64,000 nucleotides of DNA, taken from the NCBI RefSeq assembly GCF_050920415.1, contig NZ_CP169309.1; one strand, given 5' to 3'. The position numbers and the translations under genes were made by a program. The DNA comes from Escherichia coli. GTDB lineage: Bacteria > Pseudomonadota > Gammaproteobacteria > Enterobacterales > Enterobacteriaceae. The notes below the pieces were generated by a model. It saw only the letters and a program-made list of their open reading frames with translations. It did no database searches and was not told where the DNA came from. Positions 25,853-31,353 of the stretch are shown here, in pieces; within the stretch, counting starts at the first letter, position 1; every line of letters starts with the position of its first letter.

Positions 25853-26179
25853 TTATTTTTTCCAGAGGCGGTCGAACTCCGCCTTCGCAAAATAAGCGGA
25901 AGCCTGGCGAAGGATATCGTTACTGCGGCGCAGTTCACGATTTTCACGTTCCAGCTCTTTCAGACGCTGACGTTCAGCGGTGGTGAGCCCACCATCACCG
26001 CTCCCGGTATCCCTCTCATGCTGGCGAACCCAGACACGCAGAGTCTCTGGCGTACAGCCAATCTTTGGAGCAATGGAACAAATTGCCGCCCATTGTGAGT
26101 CATATTCGCCCTGACTTTCCAGAACCATACGAACTGCGCGTTGACGGACTTCGGGGGAAAAACGAGTATTTTTAGTCAT
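25853..26179 (-). CDS. IS3-family transposase OrfA (HTH and leucine zipper)
   Basis: 108 aa, [19 protein letters not shown]...; recognised IS629-type OrfA. Confidence 0.85.
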
Positions 26180-26454
26180 CCTGTTTACCTCTTTCTCAGG
26201 AAGTTTAGTCTCCAGGATTTCCGGGGCGGTTCACTGCGAAATGTTTGGTCGGGTACAGCGGGATCCATTCTGGGTAAAAAACATCATGAGCCCGTCAAAA
26301 CTTCGCGATAAATGGGATGAGCTGGTTATCCGTCTGGGGCGTTCGCCTGTACAGCGTTGTGTGAATCATATTTCTGAACCTGACACCGAAATTCCACCAG
26401 GGTTCAGGGGGTAGGTATTGATTTCAGATCATGAGGTAATTTTCAGGAGGACTT

Positions 26455-26877
26455 GTGGCAAAAGTTTTTACACAAGAAGAGCGGGAAAAAATTAAGGGAC
26501 AGGTTGTTGCACTCGTACGCCAGAGTGGGCGCGAGACGTTACGACAGCTGGAAGCTAAAACAGGTGCGACAAGATATCTGATTAGCGTTCTTGCCTGGGA
26601 GCTGGTTGCCAGTGGCGATGTATACAACTCTGGCTATGGGTTATTCCCGTCAGAACAGGCTCGTAAGGACTGGCAAAACGCCCGCAAAAAACTATCGAGG
26701 GCAAAGGGGAAGAAACCGTCTATGGTTGATCCGGACCTTATCTGGTCATTACCTGACGGAGAAATTCGTCGCTACGATAGTCGCCATAACATGGTTTGTC
26801 GCGAGTGTCTGGAAAGTGAAGTAATGCAGCGAGTGTTGGCATTTTATCAGGGAAATGTTCGCTATTTATTGAAGTGA
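26455..26877 (+). CDS. hypothetical protein, possible DNA-binding regulator
   Basis: 140-aa ORF, GTG start with AGGAGG RBS; sits where a helicase loader would be in lambda. Confidence 0.45.
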   Translation: MAKVFTQEEREKIKGQVVALVRQSGRETLRQLEAKTGATRYLISVLAWELVASGDVYNSGYGLFPSEQARKDWQNARKKLSRAKGKKPSMVDPDLIWSLPDGEIRRYDSRHNMVCRECLESEVMQRVLAFYQGNVRYLLK

Positions 26878-27341
26878 CGAGATTAAAGAGCATTAATACA
26901 TATGTGAATTGACATTTCTGTGGCACAGGGCTAGAACTATTCTCATTGTCAGCGTTGTGCCAGAGTCTGATGTTTGTTGTACATTTGGACGAATAGACGG
27001 CGTTGTTAACTTTAAAAATAACACAGGAACACTTTGAGAAAGTGAACAGGCGTATTTATTTTTTGCTGATGAAGGAGAGTAACTTTAATTTGGGTAATTA
27101 GATTGATAATAGGCCAGACGAAAATAACATTCTGGCACACTTTTGGTCGCTACAGTCATTAGTTAATTTTAAGTGATAAATTTTTATCCATAAGTTAACA
27201 CTAGTGTGTCATCTAGCGAAACCGAATCGCTTTAATCCATAACTTAAAGTTGAATCAGTGGGGTAGCAGTAGGTATGCCGGAACTGATAAACTGTGCAGA
27301 AGGCTAAACATTCATTCACTCGTGAGATAGTAGCATAAATT

Positions 27342-27686
27342 ATGCAAAGAATTATTCCTGATAAAAATTGGTGGGAAAAAGAGCGTATTAATCGTAAAGC
27401 ATCATCAAAATGCCCATATGCTAGTTCATACAGATGTCCTCGGTACTATCAGAGTGTAGTTTTGCTCTCAAGCATCAATATGATAGCTGGTATGGCAACT
27501 AGGAAAGAAAAAGAGTTGGGCGAATTTGGGGAAAGAACTAGTTTCTCATATTTATGTGATGAAGAAGTCCCAACAGTTACTACAAAAGAATATGGCGGCC
27601 TTGCATCAGTTAGTAATTTTTGCCCAGAAATATCATTTAGATATTTACACTATTACGCCGATTATATGTGTAAATATGTTGATTAG
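27342..27686 (+). CDS. hypothetical Cys-containing protein (low-GC cassette A, gene 1)
   Basis: 114-aa ORF in markedly AT-rich DNA after a 460-bp AT-rich non-coding leader; Cys pairs CPY...CPRY. Confidence 0.4.
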   Translation: MQRIIPDKNWWEKERINRKASSKCPYASSYRCPRYYQSVVLLSSINMIAGMATRKEKELGEFGERTSFSYLCDEEVPTVTTKEYGGLASVSNFCPEISFRYLHYYADYMCKYVD

Positions 27687-27755
27687 ATAGATCAGGATAC
27701 TGGCAGGCGTAGTGCGGAAAAAGATAATTTAGAAAATGATTGGAAATATACATGG

Positions 27756-28208
27756 ATGTCAGTCAATCCTAAATTTTATTTAGATTGCGATGTTTTTGAA
27801 AGTGTCAAAAACTTCAATGAAGAATTGGCTAGTGATTACTTAAAGAGATTGCATCCAAATATCATTCAGCAAATAGATAGAATGAATAATTGCTTGGATA
27901 ATAATGACCCTGCGGGTGCACTGCACGCAGCCTCTAATATTCTAGAAACTATGGCGAAGGAAATCACTCAAAACCCGAATGTGGCAAATGAGTCATTGGG
28001 TGGTTTTTTTAAACAGTTCGAAAAAATGTCAAAATTACCTAAGAATCTTATTGATATTGTTAAAGATATTTATGATTTACGCAACAAACTACCTACTGCT
28101 GGACACGGAAGCTTGAACAGGCCTGAATTAACTATGGTAGAAGCTATAACTATTGCGGCAATGACAAAGGCGATTTTAGAAATTGAATATCGAAGCAAAG
28201 CCATCTAA
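27756..28208 (+). CDS. hypothetical protein (low-GC cassette A, gene 2); C-terminal R-N-x5-G-H-G segment possibly HEPN/Abi-like
   Basis: 150-aa ORF; predicted mostly helical; DLRNKLPTAGHGSLNRPE near C-terminus; no confident family assignment. Confidence 0.45.
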   Translation: MSVNPKFYLDCDVFESVKNFNEELASDYLKRLHPNIIQQIDRMNNCLDNNDPAGALHAASNILETMAKEITQNPNVANESLGGFFKQFEKMSKLPKNLIDIVKDIYDLRNKLPTAGHGSLNRPELTMVEAITIAAMTKAILEIEYRSKAI

Positions 28209-28705
28209 CAAACATAAATTATGTGGTTCAAATTCCCGCTATACTTCTGTGTTATTGCCGCCAGCGTCTACTTATCGCTGTGAGTTCAACGGGGCGATGA
28301 TGCGTTAGAGATCTCTGAATCGATTGAAGTCTAAGGTTGTCAGGGCTGTAACAGTAGCCCTGTGTCATGAAAGGATTGCATATTAATTAACGAAGAACAG
28401 ACCAATAGCATTGATAGTTGTTTTCAAAAATAGACCAATAACAAACACGACTGGCCATCTCATCGATTTTCGACAGTATGCAGAAATGGGCGGGATCCAC
28501 ACGCAGTACCAGCTTGCTAAGATAAACGAAAAGGAGACTTTAACCAGTCAGTGGCTGCATGCTGATGGTGATCCGCTATGGGCCGTAGATGTTGTTTGAT
28601 GTACGCAGAAAGAGACGACGAAGGGCACTATGCCGAAAACTAAATCGGTTTTAGAGATTAACCGCGCTGGTGAGCTGGAGTGATTGACTTTTAGAACGCC
28701 AGAAA

Positions 28706-28733
28706 GCAAAAACCTCACAATCGAGTGAGGTTT
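28706..28733. terminator. bidirectional rho-independent terminator between the two accessory cassettes (approximate)
   Basis: Hairpin AACCTCAC-aatcgag-GTGAGGTT flanked by an A-run upstream and T-run downstream; immediately 3' of the minus-strand cassette. Confidence 0.5.
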
Positions 28734-28746
28734 TGTTAAGGGCTTA

Positions 28747-29379
28747 CTATTTTTTGGCAATTAGTGCATGCATCGCCATTTCATGACCTTTTCTGCGAAG
28801 TTTTTTCACACGGGGCTTGAGCCTAGTGAAAGAACTTGGGCTAATTGTCGACTCAGCTTCAACTATATCATTGCGGGGAGCACCCGTTTTAGCATCTTCA
28901 TAGCGGATAAGTATTTTAAACGTGCCCTCATCAACTCCGACACCTTGCAAGTGATGAAGTTTAGATGAAACAGCACCGATTAAATAATCATGAATTCCTT
29001 GCAGGCCCGTTTTACCGATTGGTGAATAGGTATGCAACATATTTGCACCTACAGGAAGGAACTGGCGAAAGTCAGGAACATGCATCTTGTTAACTTCAAC
29101 AGAAGTGTATGCTTTCATGTCAAAAGAAACTCCAGGTTTCCGTGCATTGACTTCTAGCCATTGAGGCAAATCGAGAATATATTTGCTCTCAGCAGTTACT
29201 TCCAGTTTCTTCCTAGACGATAATGTCACGTCCATTACCTGAGCCATATCAGCCATAGAAAGCTCAGCGGCCTTCCGGTTGATGGCTTGTACCCGCTCGC
29301 TCACGTTAGGTCCGAATGCATCGAACAACGAAATTTCAGCAGCTGGTTTAATGGCTTCAGTTTTAACAGACATATACAC
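28747..29379 (-). CDS. hypothetical protein, partner of zeta-like kinase (cassette B, gene 2)
   Basis: 210-aa ORF about 19 nt downstream of the kinase gene on the same strand; no recognisable motif. Confidence 0.5.
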   Translation of the reverse strand: MYMSVKTEAIKPAAEISLFDAFGPNVSERVQAINRKAAELSMADMAQVMDVTLSSRKKLEVTAESKYILDLPQWLEVNARKPGVSFDMKAYTSVEVNKMHVPDFRQFLPVGANMLHTYSPIGKTGLQGIHDYLIGAVSSKLHHLQGVGVDEGTFKILIRYEDAKTGAPRNDIVEAESTISPSSFTRLKPRVKKLRRKGHEMAMHALIAKK

Positions 29380-29398
29380 TCCTTAGATAGGACACTTA

Positions 29399-30097
29399 TT
29401 ATACACCTAAATGCGCTAGATCGCTAACGTCTGAATATGGGCAGCTATGGGAGGTAGTCCAGTTTTCAAGGGTCACGTTAGGAGTATAGTCGACCACGAA
29501 CTGACCATCATTTTCAGGATCTTCCCGTCGATGATAAACATTGAGTGTAAATAGGCCTGCATATTTCGCGAGCATATGTTCAATGGTCTCTCTGCTCTTG
29601 AAAAAGTTCGCTTTAAGAACCTCTAACGGAACCTTACGAGAGCGGGCTTGGGCAAAAACCCACGCGTAAGCCGGATCAAAATAGACGTAATTCAGTGCTA
29701 CCTGATAACCAGCCTTCAGGGCCAGATCAAAGTTTCTCTCCGCAATACCTATACTGGAGAAAGTAGAGTCCATAACAATGGGATAGCCTTCAGATAGCGC
29801 TTTTTTGTAGATAAAATCGACCATTCTGGAGGCAGGTCTCTGATAGTCCACAGAGTTCTCTTCATTGTAGTAGGGGAACCACCAGCGAAAATCATCAGCA
29901 TCAATTCGAACAATGTTTGTGATGCCATGTTGTTCTAAAAGACGATTTAAGAGCTCGGTTTTACCTGCAGCAGGCGAACCAGCCATAAACAGGACGTGCT
30001 TGGCATTGGCATTTTTGTTTGCTGTTACGTAACTATAAACGTAAGGGCGAATTGCCTCACCAAACTCAGGCAGTATGGTTTCAAGTTCTTTTTTCAT
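29399..30097 (-). CDS. zeta-toxin-like P-loop kinase (cassette B, gene 1)
   Basis: 232-aa ORF; Walker A FMAGSPAAGKTEL followed about 20 residues later by RIDADDFR, the arrangement seen in zeta/PezT/AvrRxo1-type kinases; low-GC context. Confidence 0.6.
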   Translation of the reverse strand: MKKELETILPEFGEAIRPYVYSYVTANKNANAKHVLFMAGSPAAGKTELLNRLLEQHGITNIVRIDADDFRWWFPYYNEENSVDYQRPASRMVDFIYKKALSEGYPIVMDSTFSSIGIAERNFDLALKAGYQVALNYVYFDPAYAWVFAQARSRKVPLEVLKANFFKSRETIEHMLAKYAGLFTLNVYHRREDPENDGQFVVDYTPNVTLENWTTSHSCPYSDVSDLAHLGV

Positions 30098-30261
30098 CGG
30101 TAAATCATGCCGTGGTAGTTTTAGTTTTATTTAACAATATCATAAACGTTTAAAGATGGTTACAAATTAGCTAGATTTGTGAGCGCTTTAACCTCTAAAA
30201 CCCTCTGGAACCCAATACCGCTTTTCTGGCTGTCTTTTCAATACGGCATCCAGCGCATCAC

Positions 30262-30600
30262 TTACTCGGTCTGTATGCGGTTCATTGCTGAAGTCGCCAG
30301 TTGCGGGTAAATCTGCATCTCTGCGCCGTTTAAGATTCGCGTATTTACGCGCAAGCGCTCGATGGCTTCATTTTGCTGGTGGCTTTCCTTCCTCGCGGCT
30401 ATTCTAGCTATCTGATTGGCTGCTATGGCCTTTGCCGCTGTCATGGAATGCGCCAGAGTCTTATCCGTCATCATTACACGCTGCGTTTCCAGCATGCTGG
30501 AATGATCTCTTTTTGTTGTTCTTGAAGAAGAACTCTTATTCTTCGGTATATCATTTTGACAGGGGGCAGTGTAAGTATCCCTGCAAAACGAACCATTCAC
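30262..30600 (-). CDS. hypothetical protein (weak call)
   Basis: 112-aa ORF; the C-terminal 70 aa look protein-like, the N-terminal part may be spurious. Confidence 0.3.
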   Translation of the reverse strand: MNGSFCRDTYTAPCQNDIPKNKSSSSRTTKRDHSSMLETQRVMMTDKTLAHSMTAAKAIAANQIARIAARKESHQQNEAIERLRVNTRILNGAEMQIYPQLATSAMNRIQTE

Positions 30601-30907: not shown

Positions 30908-31122
30908 TTGATTTTATATTGGCGAGGTGACGGGAGTTAAGTAGGATTGCTGCGGGTGCTTGAGGCTATCTGTCTCAGGCATGAATACCAACGGCAGATA
31001 GAGAAAAGCCCCAGTTAACATTACGCGTCCTGCAAGACGCCTAACATTAATCTGAGGCCATATCTATGACTTGCACACGTAGGTTAGCCTCTTACGTGCC
31101 GAAAGGCAAGGAGAAGCAGGCT

Positions 31123-31353
31123 ATGAAGCAGCATAAGGCGATGTTAATCGCCCTGATTGTCATCTGTTTAACTGTCATTGTGACGGCACTGGTAACGAGG
31201 AAAGATCTCTGTGAGGTACGAATCCGAACCAGCCAAACGGAGGTCGCTGTCTTCACAGCTTACGAACCTGAGGAGTTAGAGACCAGGCGAGGGAGAAATC
31301 CCTCGCCACCTCTGATGAGTCAGGCATCCTCAATGCACCCACACTTAACTTGA
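31123..31353 (+). CDS. hokD: Hok/Gef-family type I toxin (HokD/RelF-like) with C-terminal extension
   Basis: MKQHKAMLIALIVICLTVIVTALVTRKDLCEVRIRTSQTEVAVFTAYEPEE matches the Hok family; the expected stop after EPEE is TTA here and the ORF continues 25 codons; GC-rich hairpin GGCGAGGGAGAAATCCCTCGCC within the extension; in frame with an upstream mok-like ORF from 31066. Confidence 0.8.
   Translation: MKQHKAMLIALIVICLTVIVTALVTRKDLCEVRIRTSQTEVAVFTAYEPEELETRRGRNPSPPLMSQASSMHPHLT

Follow-up and report, generated by a model that had tools for sequence, protein, structure and literature searches.

The question raised by this locus is what a kinase resembling the zeta toxins does inside a prophage when it is encoded ahead of its partner, and what that partner is. 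The locus is a two-gene cassette on the minus strand (positions 28,747 to 30,097) of a 64,000-nucleotide stretch of Escherichia coli DNA (RefSeq assembly GCF_050920415.1, contig NZ_CP169309.1), which as a whole is referred to here as the window. An earlier note, made by reading the letters of the window, had described two minus-strand open reading frames (ORFs) as a possible toxin or anti-phage module that could not be assigned to a named system, and both ORFs were found where it had placed them. The answer suggested here is a reverse-order, type II toxin-antitoxin (TA)-like module, which travels in the prophage as a self-contained moron and probably serves abortive-infection defence, a reading which is drawn from sequence and is held with middling confidence. 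The types of component are familiar, and what is new is the partner, its modular evolution and its phage-borne copies. The two genes, which fit into 1.4 kb, and the parts of the second one are the following.

Gene 1: 29399..30097, minus strand, 232 amino acids, zeta/PezT-family P-loop kinase.
Gene 2: ATG at 29373, running to 28747, minus strand, partner of 208 amino acids.
Gene 2, N-terminal module (N-module), amino acids 1-48: 29230..29373, minus strand, delimited by the alignment of homologues and by dN/dS, the ratio of nonsynonymous to synonymous substitution rates.
Gene 2, hypervariable middle, amino acids about 49-128: 28990..29229, minus strand, delimited by identity drop, dN/dS and recombination.
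Gene 2, C-terminal part, amino acids about 129-208: 28747..28989, minus strand, delimited by alignment, model and dN/dS.

As judged by its sequence and its structure model, gene 1 encodes a kinase of the zeta/PezT family, although a non-canonical one. Both Pfam families that the earlier note had named for a search were matched, Zeta_toxin (PF06414) with an independent E-value of 9.3e-29 (100.7 bits, residues 28-181) and AAA_33 with 3.7e-12, whereby PF06414 is carried by all gene 1 homologues. Searched against the sequences of the PDB, gene 1 found PezT (1.4e-10) and zeta (3e-4) as its sole matches, and the profile of its family retrieved PezT (2.6e-12) and zeta (5e-8), then the Pnkp1 kinase domain (8.5e-7). 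The AlphaFold2 (AF2) model of the kinase part reached values of 75-96 in the predicted local distance difference test (pLDDT), and Foldseek returned zeta/PezT structures as top matches (3q8x_D, 1gvn_D and 2p5t, E 1e-9 to 9e-8), followed by PFKFB kinase domains, AvrRxo1-ORF1, PSTK and the bacterial polynucleotide kinase (PNK) of Clostridium thermocellum (CthPnk, 7e-5), so that the zeta-toxin-like kinase postulated earlier was recovered by family, by closest sequence and by fold. The two motifs on which that postulate was based are likewise present: the Walker A motif FMAGSPAAGKTEL spans G40 to T47 (G40-SPAAGKT47) and holds K46, and the Asp-rich segment RIDADDFR provides D66 to R71, with D66 aligning with the catalytic Asp of zeta (D67) and PezT (D66). 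Among 18 homologues no variation was seen at K46, D66, R152, R154 and R169, nor in a family-specific block, RIDADDFRWWFPYYN, which holds D66; the zeta-type FR..P.Y stretch is present in gene 1. Hence the kinase shares fold and family (PF06414) with the toxins of the type II TA systems epsilon/zeta (plasmid pSM19035) and PezA/PezT (Streptococcus pneumoniae), together with Walker A, the catalytic Asp within ID.D.FR and the Arg residues of the lid region.

The matches to PNKs give room to a different explanation, according to which gene 1 encodes a non-toxic kinase of nucleotides, cofactors or polynucleotides (5'-OH RNA or DNA) that is beneficial or acts in repair, for instance of cleaved tRNA as T4 Pnk does, with the gene 2 product being its adaptor, regulator or substrate. 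Such a function would agree with the Pnkp1 match of the family profile, with the PHROG match of gene 1 to polynucleotide kinase (1.3e-4), with CthPnk and PSTK among the Foldseek matches and with the DDFR and D-S-T motifs, which are PNK-like, as well as with the GTXR motif being absent (see below). However, zeta and PezT clearly outscore the PNKs in every search, the Pnkp1 and CthPnk matches being clearly weaker, the zeta-type FR..P.Y stretch is retained, no phosphatase or ligase partner lies nearby, and the strict pairing of the two genes as well as the loss of the kinase alone in decayed loci, which are described further below, suit a toxin better. A non-toxic kinase is consequently considered unlikely.

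Which substrate a kinase of this kind would use is addressed by a single stretch of the protein. GTXR is the motif by which zeta and PezT bind uridine diphosphate N-acetylglucosamine (UDP-GlcNAc; PMC6362051). It was not found in gene 1, neither in the alignment to PezT and zeta nor across the 18 homologues: D110-S-T-F-S114 aligns with E-G-T-L-R of PezT and E-G-T-G-R of zeta, meaning that S-T-F-S stands where GTXR sits in these toxins, and DSTF is invariant in the family. Because the motif is missing, the substrate is probably other than UDP-GlcNAc, and UDP-GlcNAc bound in the canonical manner, which the earlier note had listed as a candidate, is unlikely on sequence grounds. Against the NCBIfam PezT equivalog model NF041574, gene 1 scores 39.6 bits at a curated cut-off of 470. 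A zeta-like kinase without GTXR that is encoded in toxin-first order is known from AvrRxo1-ORF1/ORF2 (Arc1) of Xanthomonas, where it acts as a NAD kinase and is followed by the gene of its inhibitor; in lacking GTXR and in the kinase coming first the cassette is alike. The model of the kinase matches AvrRxo1-ORF1 in Foldseek (4z8q_A, also 4z8u; E=3.5e-6, template-modelling score TMt 0.41), and PDB sequence and profile searches gave no sequence-level match between the two; AvrRxo1 differs in being larger and a type III secreted effector, and its ORF2 is helical, comprises about 100 amino acids and is unrelated in sequence to the partner found here. EzeT of E. coli, too, is an enterobacterial zeta-family kinase with a non-canonical antitoxin arrangement, but it is a single polypeptide with a cis-acting N-terminal antitoxin domain and phosphorylates UDP-GlcNAc, whereas the cassette has a separate downstream gene and lacks the UDP-GlcNAc motif.

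The two genes form one mobile unit and an obligate pair. In 22 of 22 kinase loci, a partner with the N-module lies downstream at a gap of 19-26 nt, and an intact kinase without an N-module ORF was not found in the loci examined; a 54-amino-acid ORF overlapping the distant kinase P0051 was considered as a partner and dismissed for want of a match to the N-module profile. The conserved DNA block begins some 90 nt before the kinase and ends at the stop codon of the partner. As the kinase shows a dN/dS of 0.05-0.09 against homologues at a dS of about 1, and as the pair is kept in register in 22 loci, both ORFs are judged from their sequences to be real genes and not chance ORFs. The family is confined to Enterobacterales and is rare, being present in 7 of 5,426 complete E. 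coli genomes, in 4 of 100,044 species genomes and on 9 IMG/VR contigs.

Epsilon/zeta, PezA/PezT and the cassette are all bicistronic, each combining a kinase with a partner for which, in the present case, the inhibitor role is a proposal, but the order of the cassette is reversed, the kinase coming first, and no small epsilon/PezA-like antitoxin gene was found directly upstream of the kinase. The ORF that does lie upstream (30262..30495, minus strand, 77 amino acids, annotated in RefSeq as WP_000894818.1) is 165 nt away from the kinase and without a match in PHROGs or PADLOC. It was tried as an epsilon-like antitoxin and rejected, since besides having no match it lies outside the conserved block and is absent from most loci: it is shared with one Klebsiella-type prophage only, and in other loci an integrase or unrelated genes lie upstream. 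The statement of the earlier note that the architecture is kinase-first and not that of canonical epsilon-zeta therefore holds, and the upstream ORF does not belong to the conserved unit.

The extent of gene 2 has to be corrected with respect to the earlier note, which had placed it properly but given it 210 amino acids and a gap of about 19 nt. The 210-amino-acid ORF from GTG at 29379 is a mechanical maximum. An ATG at 29373, positioned 5 nt after AAGGAG (29379..29384), yields 208 amino acids and a 25-nt gap, corresponds to the RefSeq annotation and is the conserved start among homologues; it is hence, from the sequence, most likely the true one. That the partner has no recognisable motif was seen again in every library searched: gene 2 had no match in Pfam, NCBIfam, PHROG, PADLOC or the PDB, where sequence and profile searches returned noise only. 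Relatives are few, amounting to 15 clusters among 5.8 billion, and to 34 representatives among 1.84 billion by profile, two of which (P0076 and P0079, large repetitive proteins) were discarded as spurious repeat matches. The partner shows no detectable likeness to epsilon or PezA, lacks a helix-turn-helix and, with its 208 amino acids, consists of a conserved 48-residue module followed by a variable body.

These parts evolve in very different ways. The N-module (amino acids 1-48, MSVKTEAIKPAAEISLFDAFGPNVSERVQAINRKAAELSMADMAQVMD) is nearly invariant with a dN/dS of 0.18-0.25, and its divergence follows that of the kinase. At the boundary of the N-module the nucleotide identity falls abruptly from about 85% to 30-50%, and the middle which follows shows a dN/dS of about 0.9 in the closest pair. 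The C-terminal part is semi-conserved, with a dN/dS of 0.3-0.45, and is lacking from short partners; it comprises a helix, a beta-hairpin (..VSSKLHHLQGVGVDEGTFKILIRYEDAKTGAPR..) and a basic tail that terminates in AKK. How such a pattern arises can be read from loci L005 and L024, where the kinases are 99% identical (dS 0.04) and the N-modules 96% identical, whereas the middle and C-terminal parts of the partners differ at a dS of 1.7-1.9; recombination therefore replaced everything past the N-module. By analogy only, a conserved toxin combined with a fast-evolving, recombining antitoxin region recalls defence TA systems whose antitoxin is variable and acts in sensing, such as fused CapRel.

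In some clades the N-module alone forms the whole partner (55-62 amino acids), and such partners stand beside intact kinases in Pluralibacter (58 amino acids) and in a clade whose cassette sits between flk and fabB (62 amino acids). Decayed loci exist as well: a split partner coincides with a frameshifted kinase, and at the flk-fabB site, where L049 (1794-2705) has an intact kinase and the 62-amino-acid partner, another genome (L050, 4949-5257) has a 63-nt kinase remnant fused ahead of the still-open partner ORF, whose ATG and Shine-Dalgarno sequence are gone. When gene 2 was modelled fused to the kinase (AF2, Gly-Ser linker, paired alignment), residues about 9-48 rose from pLDDT 54-58 alone to 66-81, a modest rise obtained with an alignment different from and shallower than that used for gene 2 alone, and the remainder of gene 2 stayed below 50. 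Based on co-divergence with the kinase, N-module-only partners, the pattern of decay and the confidence rise in the fused model, the N-module is proposed to be the functional core of the partner and to behave like an essential inhibitor.

The same loci bear on the opposite assignment of roles, in which the gene 2 product acts as effector or toxin, with the kinase as an enzymatic antitoxin of type VII-like kind, or a regulator, that phosphorylates it. Kinase antitoxins exist in type VII systems (TakA/TglT), and the basic tail and variable body of the partner could belong to an effector. But a helical peptide of about 50 residues makes an unlikely toxin, and it is N-module-only partners of 55-62 amino acids that are found beside intact kinases; the kinase is lost while the partner ORF persists; and the kinase is homologous to known toxins. 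Taken together, reversed polarity is regarded as highly improbable.

Additional evidence comes from N-modules that occur outside the cassette. A profile built from kinase-linked partners only retrieved small hypothetical proteins of lytic phages which carry the motif SL.D.FGP...AA..SM..MA:

KEY_151: Erwinia phage KEY (T5-like Markadamsvirinae), L031 553-870, 36 bits.
gp168: Pantoea phage vB_PagS_AAS21 (T5-like Markadamsvirinae), L030 2489-2770, 34 bits.
XbC2_378: Xanthomonas jumbo phage XbC2, L036 1459-1677, 30 bits.
P0063, P0073 and P0080: metagenomic phage-like contigs, 61-64 bits.

In P0073 and P0080 the motif occurs twice in tandem, and no kinase is found near the stand-alone phage N-modules. 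The N-module of the Pantoea phage ends in ...SMDQMAEVINSAD, close to the ...SMDEMAEVINAGN in which Pantoea chromosomal partners end. It is hypothesised from these sequences that the phage N-modules are captured antitoxin mimics, for which T4 Dmd, acting against RnlA/LsoA, offers a likeness by analogy only; the toxin chemistry and folds of both CapRel and RnlA/LsoA are wholly different from those of the kinase. Among the loci with stand-alone N-modules are L026 (765-1070) and L029 (4001-4168). When IMG/VR was scanned with a pattern for such modules, nothing but the nine prophage contigs with a linked kinase came back, the pattern being too strict for the phage variants.

The genomic company of the cassette is the other source from which its role may be deduced. 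In a Klebsiella-type prophage it is flanked by PARIS-like AriA/AriB, an HEC-04-like ATPase and a type II methyltransferase, and its neighbourhood on an Enterobacter plasmid and a related IMG/VR contig includes PD-Lambda-1 (E=2e-233), a ShosA fragment, an HNH protein, a NucC-like nuclease and a SIR2/ThsA-like protein. The Pectobacterium copy stands directly behind the integrase of a P4-like island, and at the prophage position which it occupies in the window other strains carry other cargo, including a SIR2 family protein. With such genes nearby, and with homologues in phages, the cassette is seen as most likely serving abortive-infection defence. The candidacy put forward in the earlier note is supported in that no PADLOC model matches and defence genes lie beside the cassette elsewhere.

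A plain addiction or stabilisation TA would have to be considered next to defence. It would use the same kinase-inhibitor biochemistry and secure the maintenance of its carrier, be it prophage, island or plasmid, without specific phage sensing. The distribution over a plasmid, prophages, an integrative island and small core-genome inserts is typical of selfish TA systems, decayed copies exist, and a review notes many zeta/PezT toxins without known antitoxin. On the other hand, the cassette is repeatedly, and in independent contexts, co-located with bona fide defence genes, a hypervariable, recombining partner region would be superfluous for simple addiction, and homologues of the N-module are present in lytic phages. 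Mere addiction is hence rated as doubtful, though less so than the non-toxic kinase discussed above.

What the sequences show is the family of the kinase, the modular build of the partner, the linkage and rarity of the pair and its genomic settings. For abortive infection by a reverse-order TA-like module, a sequence of events can be outlined in which toxicity, physical binding, trigger, substrate and defence phenotype are what we infer. The free gene 1 kinase would phosphorylate an essential substrate of nucleotide type, candidates being NAD-type (nicotinamide adenine dinucleotide) cofactors, other nucleotide sugars and nucleic-acid 5'-OH ends, and would thereby arrest or kill the cell. The N-module of gene 2, comprising about 48 residues with an SLFDxFGP turn and one long helix, would bind the kinase directly and keep it inactive, whereby the middle and C-terminal part would be accessory, either as a sensor or regulatory region or as a loosely constrained linker followed by a small domain. 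Infection would then disturb the partner, which may be bound, degraded or no longer synthesised, and so release the kinase. A fuller version of this proposal, that is, an undescribed abortive-infection system in which the kinase is held by a modular antitoxin composed of the 48-residue module and a phage-sensing hypervariable region reshuffled by recombination, with the N-modules of the T5-like Pantoea and Erwinia phages and the Xanthomonas jumbo phage as captured anti-defence decoys and with a substrate other than UDP-GlcNAc, is put forward tentatively, as a possibility well short of the general reading.

Several observations weigh against abortive-infection defence by such a module. Modelled alone, gene 2 reached a pLDDT of 48 and a predicted template-modelling score (pTM) of 0.20, with low confidence throughout, which leaves the partner without a confident fold, and the gain in the fused model is to be read with the change of alignment mentioned above. 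The reach of the kinase profile to PNKs (Pnkp1 8.5e-7) makes a non-toxic kinase possible. In a divergent clade, that of Pectobacterium brasiliense, the kinase is preceded by a good Shine-Dalgarno sequence. The core-genome sites at which the cassette is inserted (glmS, crl-phoE and flk-fabB) suit a selfish TA equally well. PADLOC matched neither protein, the best results of gene 1 in PADLOC-DB v2.0 being DndF (E=0.041) and PDC-S41 (E=0.06), with no system match, and the literature searched describes no defence system that relies on a kinase of zeta-like type.

How the pair would be expressed was approached via the signals around the two genes.

Upstream region: 30098..30190, minus strand, conserved, about 90 nt.
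Inter-gene junction: 29374..29403, minus strand, TATAAT, 25-nt spacer and Shine-Dalgarno sequence.
Intrinsic terminator hairpin: 28709..28734, minus strand, 10-bp stem and T-rich tail.

Nucleotide conservation among the loci sets in some 90 nt ahead of the kinase ATG, and the region thus delimited contains an inverted repeat (ACAAAT-N7-ATTTGT, 30162..30180) and a -10-like TATGAT (30139..30144). A promoter is presumed to lie here, although a consensus promoter scan made no call for the region. An upstream ORF of four codons (ATGATTTACCGATGA, 30094..30108) has its stop overlapping the kinase ATG, and no Shine-Dalgarno sequence precedes the kinase in the window and its close clade. Weak translation of the kinase as a general feature was dropped, being limited to the close clade in view of Pectobacterium brasiliense. 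Within the close clade, the strong Shine-Dalgarno sequence of the partner as against none for the kinase fits other toxin-first operons.

At the junction, a perfect TATAAT (29398..29403), sharing bases with the stop codon of the kinase, is kept in nearly all loci; it might serve as an internal promoter. As a separate observation, made with the window and loci L003, L005, L021, L023 and L024, dS is low at the 3' end of the kinase and in the N-module (29230..29448), amounting to 0.3-0.5 as compared to 1.0-1.3 elsewhere in the kinase. This may reflect an internal promoter, an anchor for gene conversion in swaps of the distal partner, or something else. Conserved RNA structure was discarded as the cause, since the consensus obtained with RNAalifold was weak (-14.5 kcal/mol over 242 columns) and showed little covariation. 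At the other end of the operon, the bidirectional hairpin terminator reported earlier was located as a 10-bp stem, AAAACCTCAC-TCGATT-GTGAGGTTTT, followed by a T-rich tail, with an A-run and a T-run that make it usable both ways; in L021, L005, L024 and L003 a hairpin of the same kind stands after the stop codon of the partner.

The element that hosts the cassette is a Rac/Qin-like lambdoid prophage adjoining rspAB, which seven complete E. coli genomes share at 99.8-100% DNA identity. The cassette is situated between a DUF977 gene of the replication region and hokD/DUF968/rusA/Q, and is transcribed antisense to both sides. With a guanine-cytosine (GC) content of 44-45% it stands below the flanking phage genes (about 50-55%), in keeping with the low-GC accessory DNA within a prophage which the earlier note had described, and the block beside it (27000..28500) has 35-38%. 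This block holds two orphan genes on the plus strand (27342..28208; 114 and 150 amino acids, 35-38% GC) that are convergent with the cassette. The 114-amino-acid protein is without a match, and the 150-amino-acid neighbour (27756..28208) has a weak match to the Pfam family Abi_C (abortive infection C-terminus; E=1.6e-4) and another weak one to phrog_9704; the two may constitute a second small defence-like module at this prophage site. Just upstream of the accessory block, the DUF977 protein (26455..26877, plus strand) matches phrog_142, 'Ren-like exclusion protein', with E=7e-43. The 3' part of a helix-turn-helix gene of the replication region (25900..26235, plus strand) is 95-98% identical to many E. 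coli plasmid sequences, whereby the plasmid copies are annotated under IS3- and IS91-family transposases and the segment gives thousands of matches. On the other side, a toxin gene of the Hok/Gef family (31066..31353, plus strand, MKQHKAMLIALIVICLTVIV...) forms an ORF of 95 amino acids in the window; in the RefSeq annotation of one identical strain it is a pseudogene lacking the C-terminus, in that of another strain an intact hokD.

Surveys report many zeta/PezT kinases of Proteobacteria as 'orphan' toxins, meaning that they have no known antitoxin. The cassette described here shows one way in which such kinases can be partnered, namely by an unrecognised downstream gene with a short conserved N-module. 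If true, this would add a new antitoxin type and probably also a new class of substrate for kinases of zeta-like type, as well as a candidate defence system that is absent from current catalogues, and the sequenced phages would with AAS21 gp168 and KEY_151 already hold ready candidates for anti-defence proteins.

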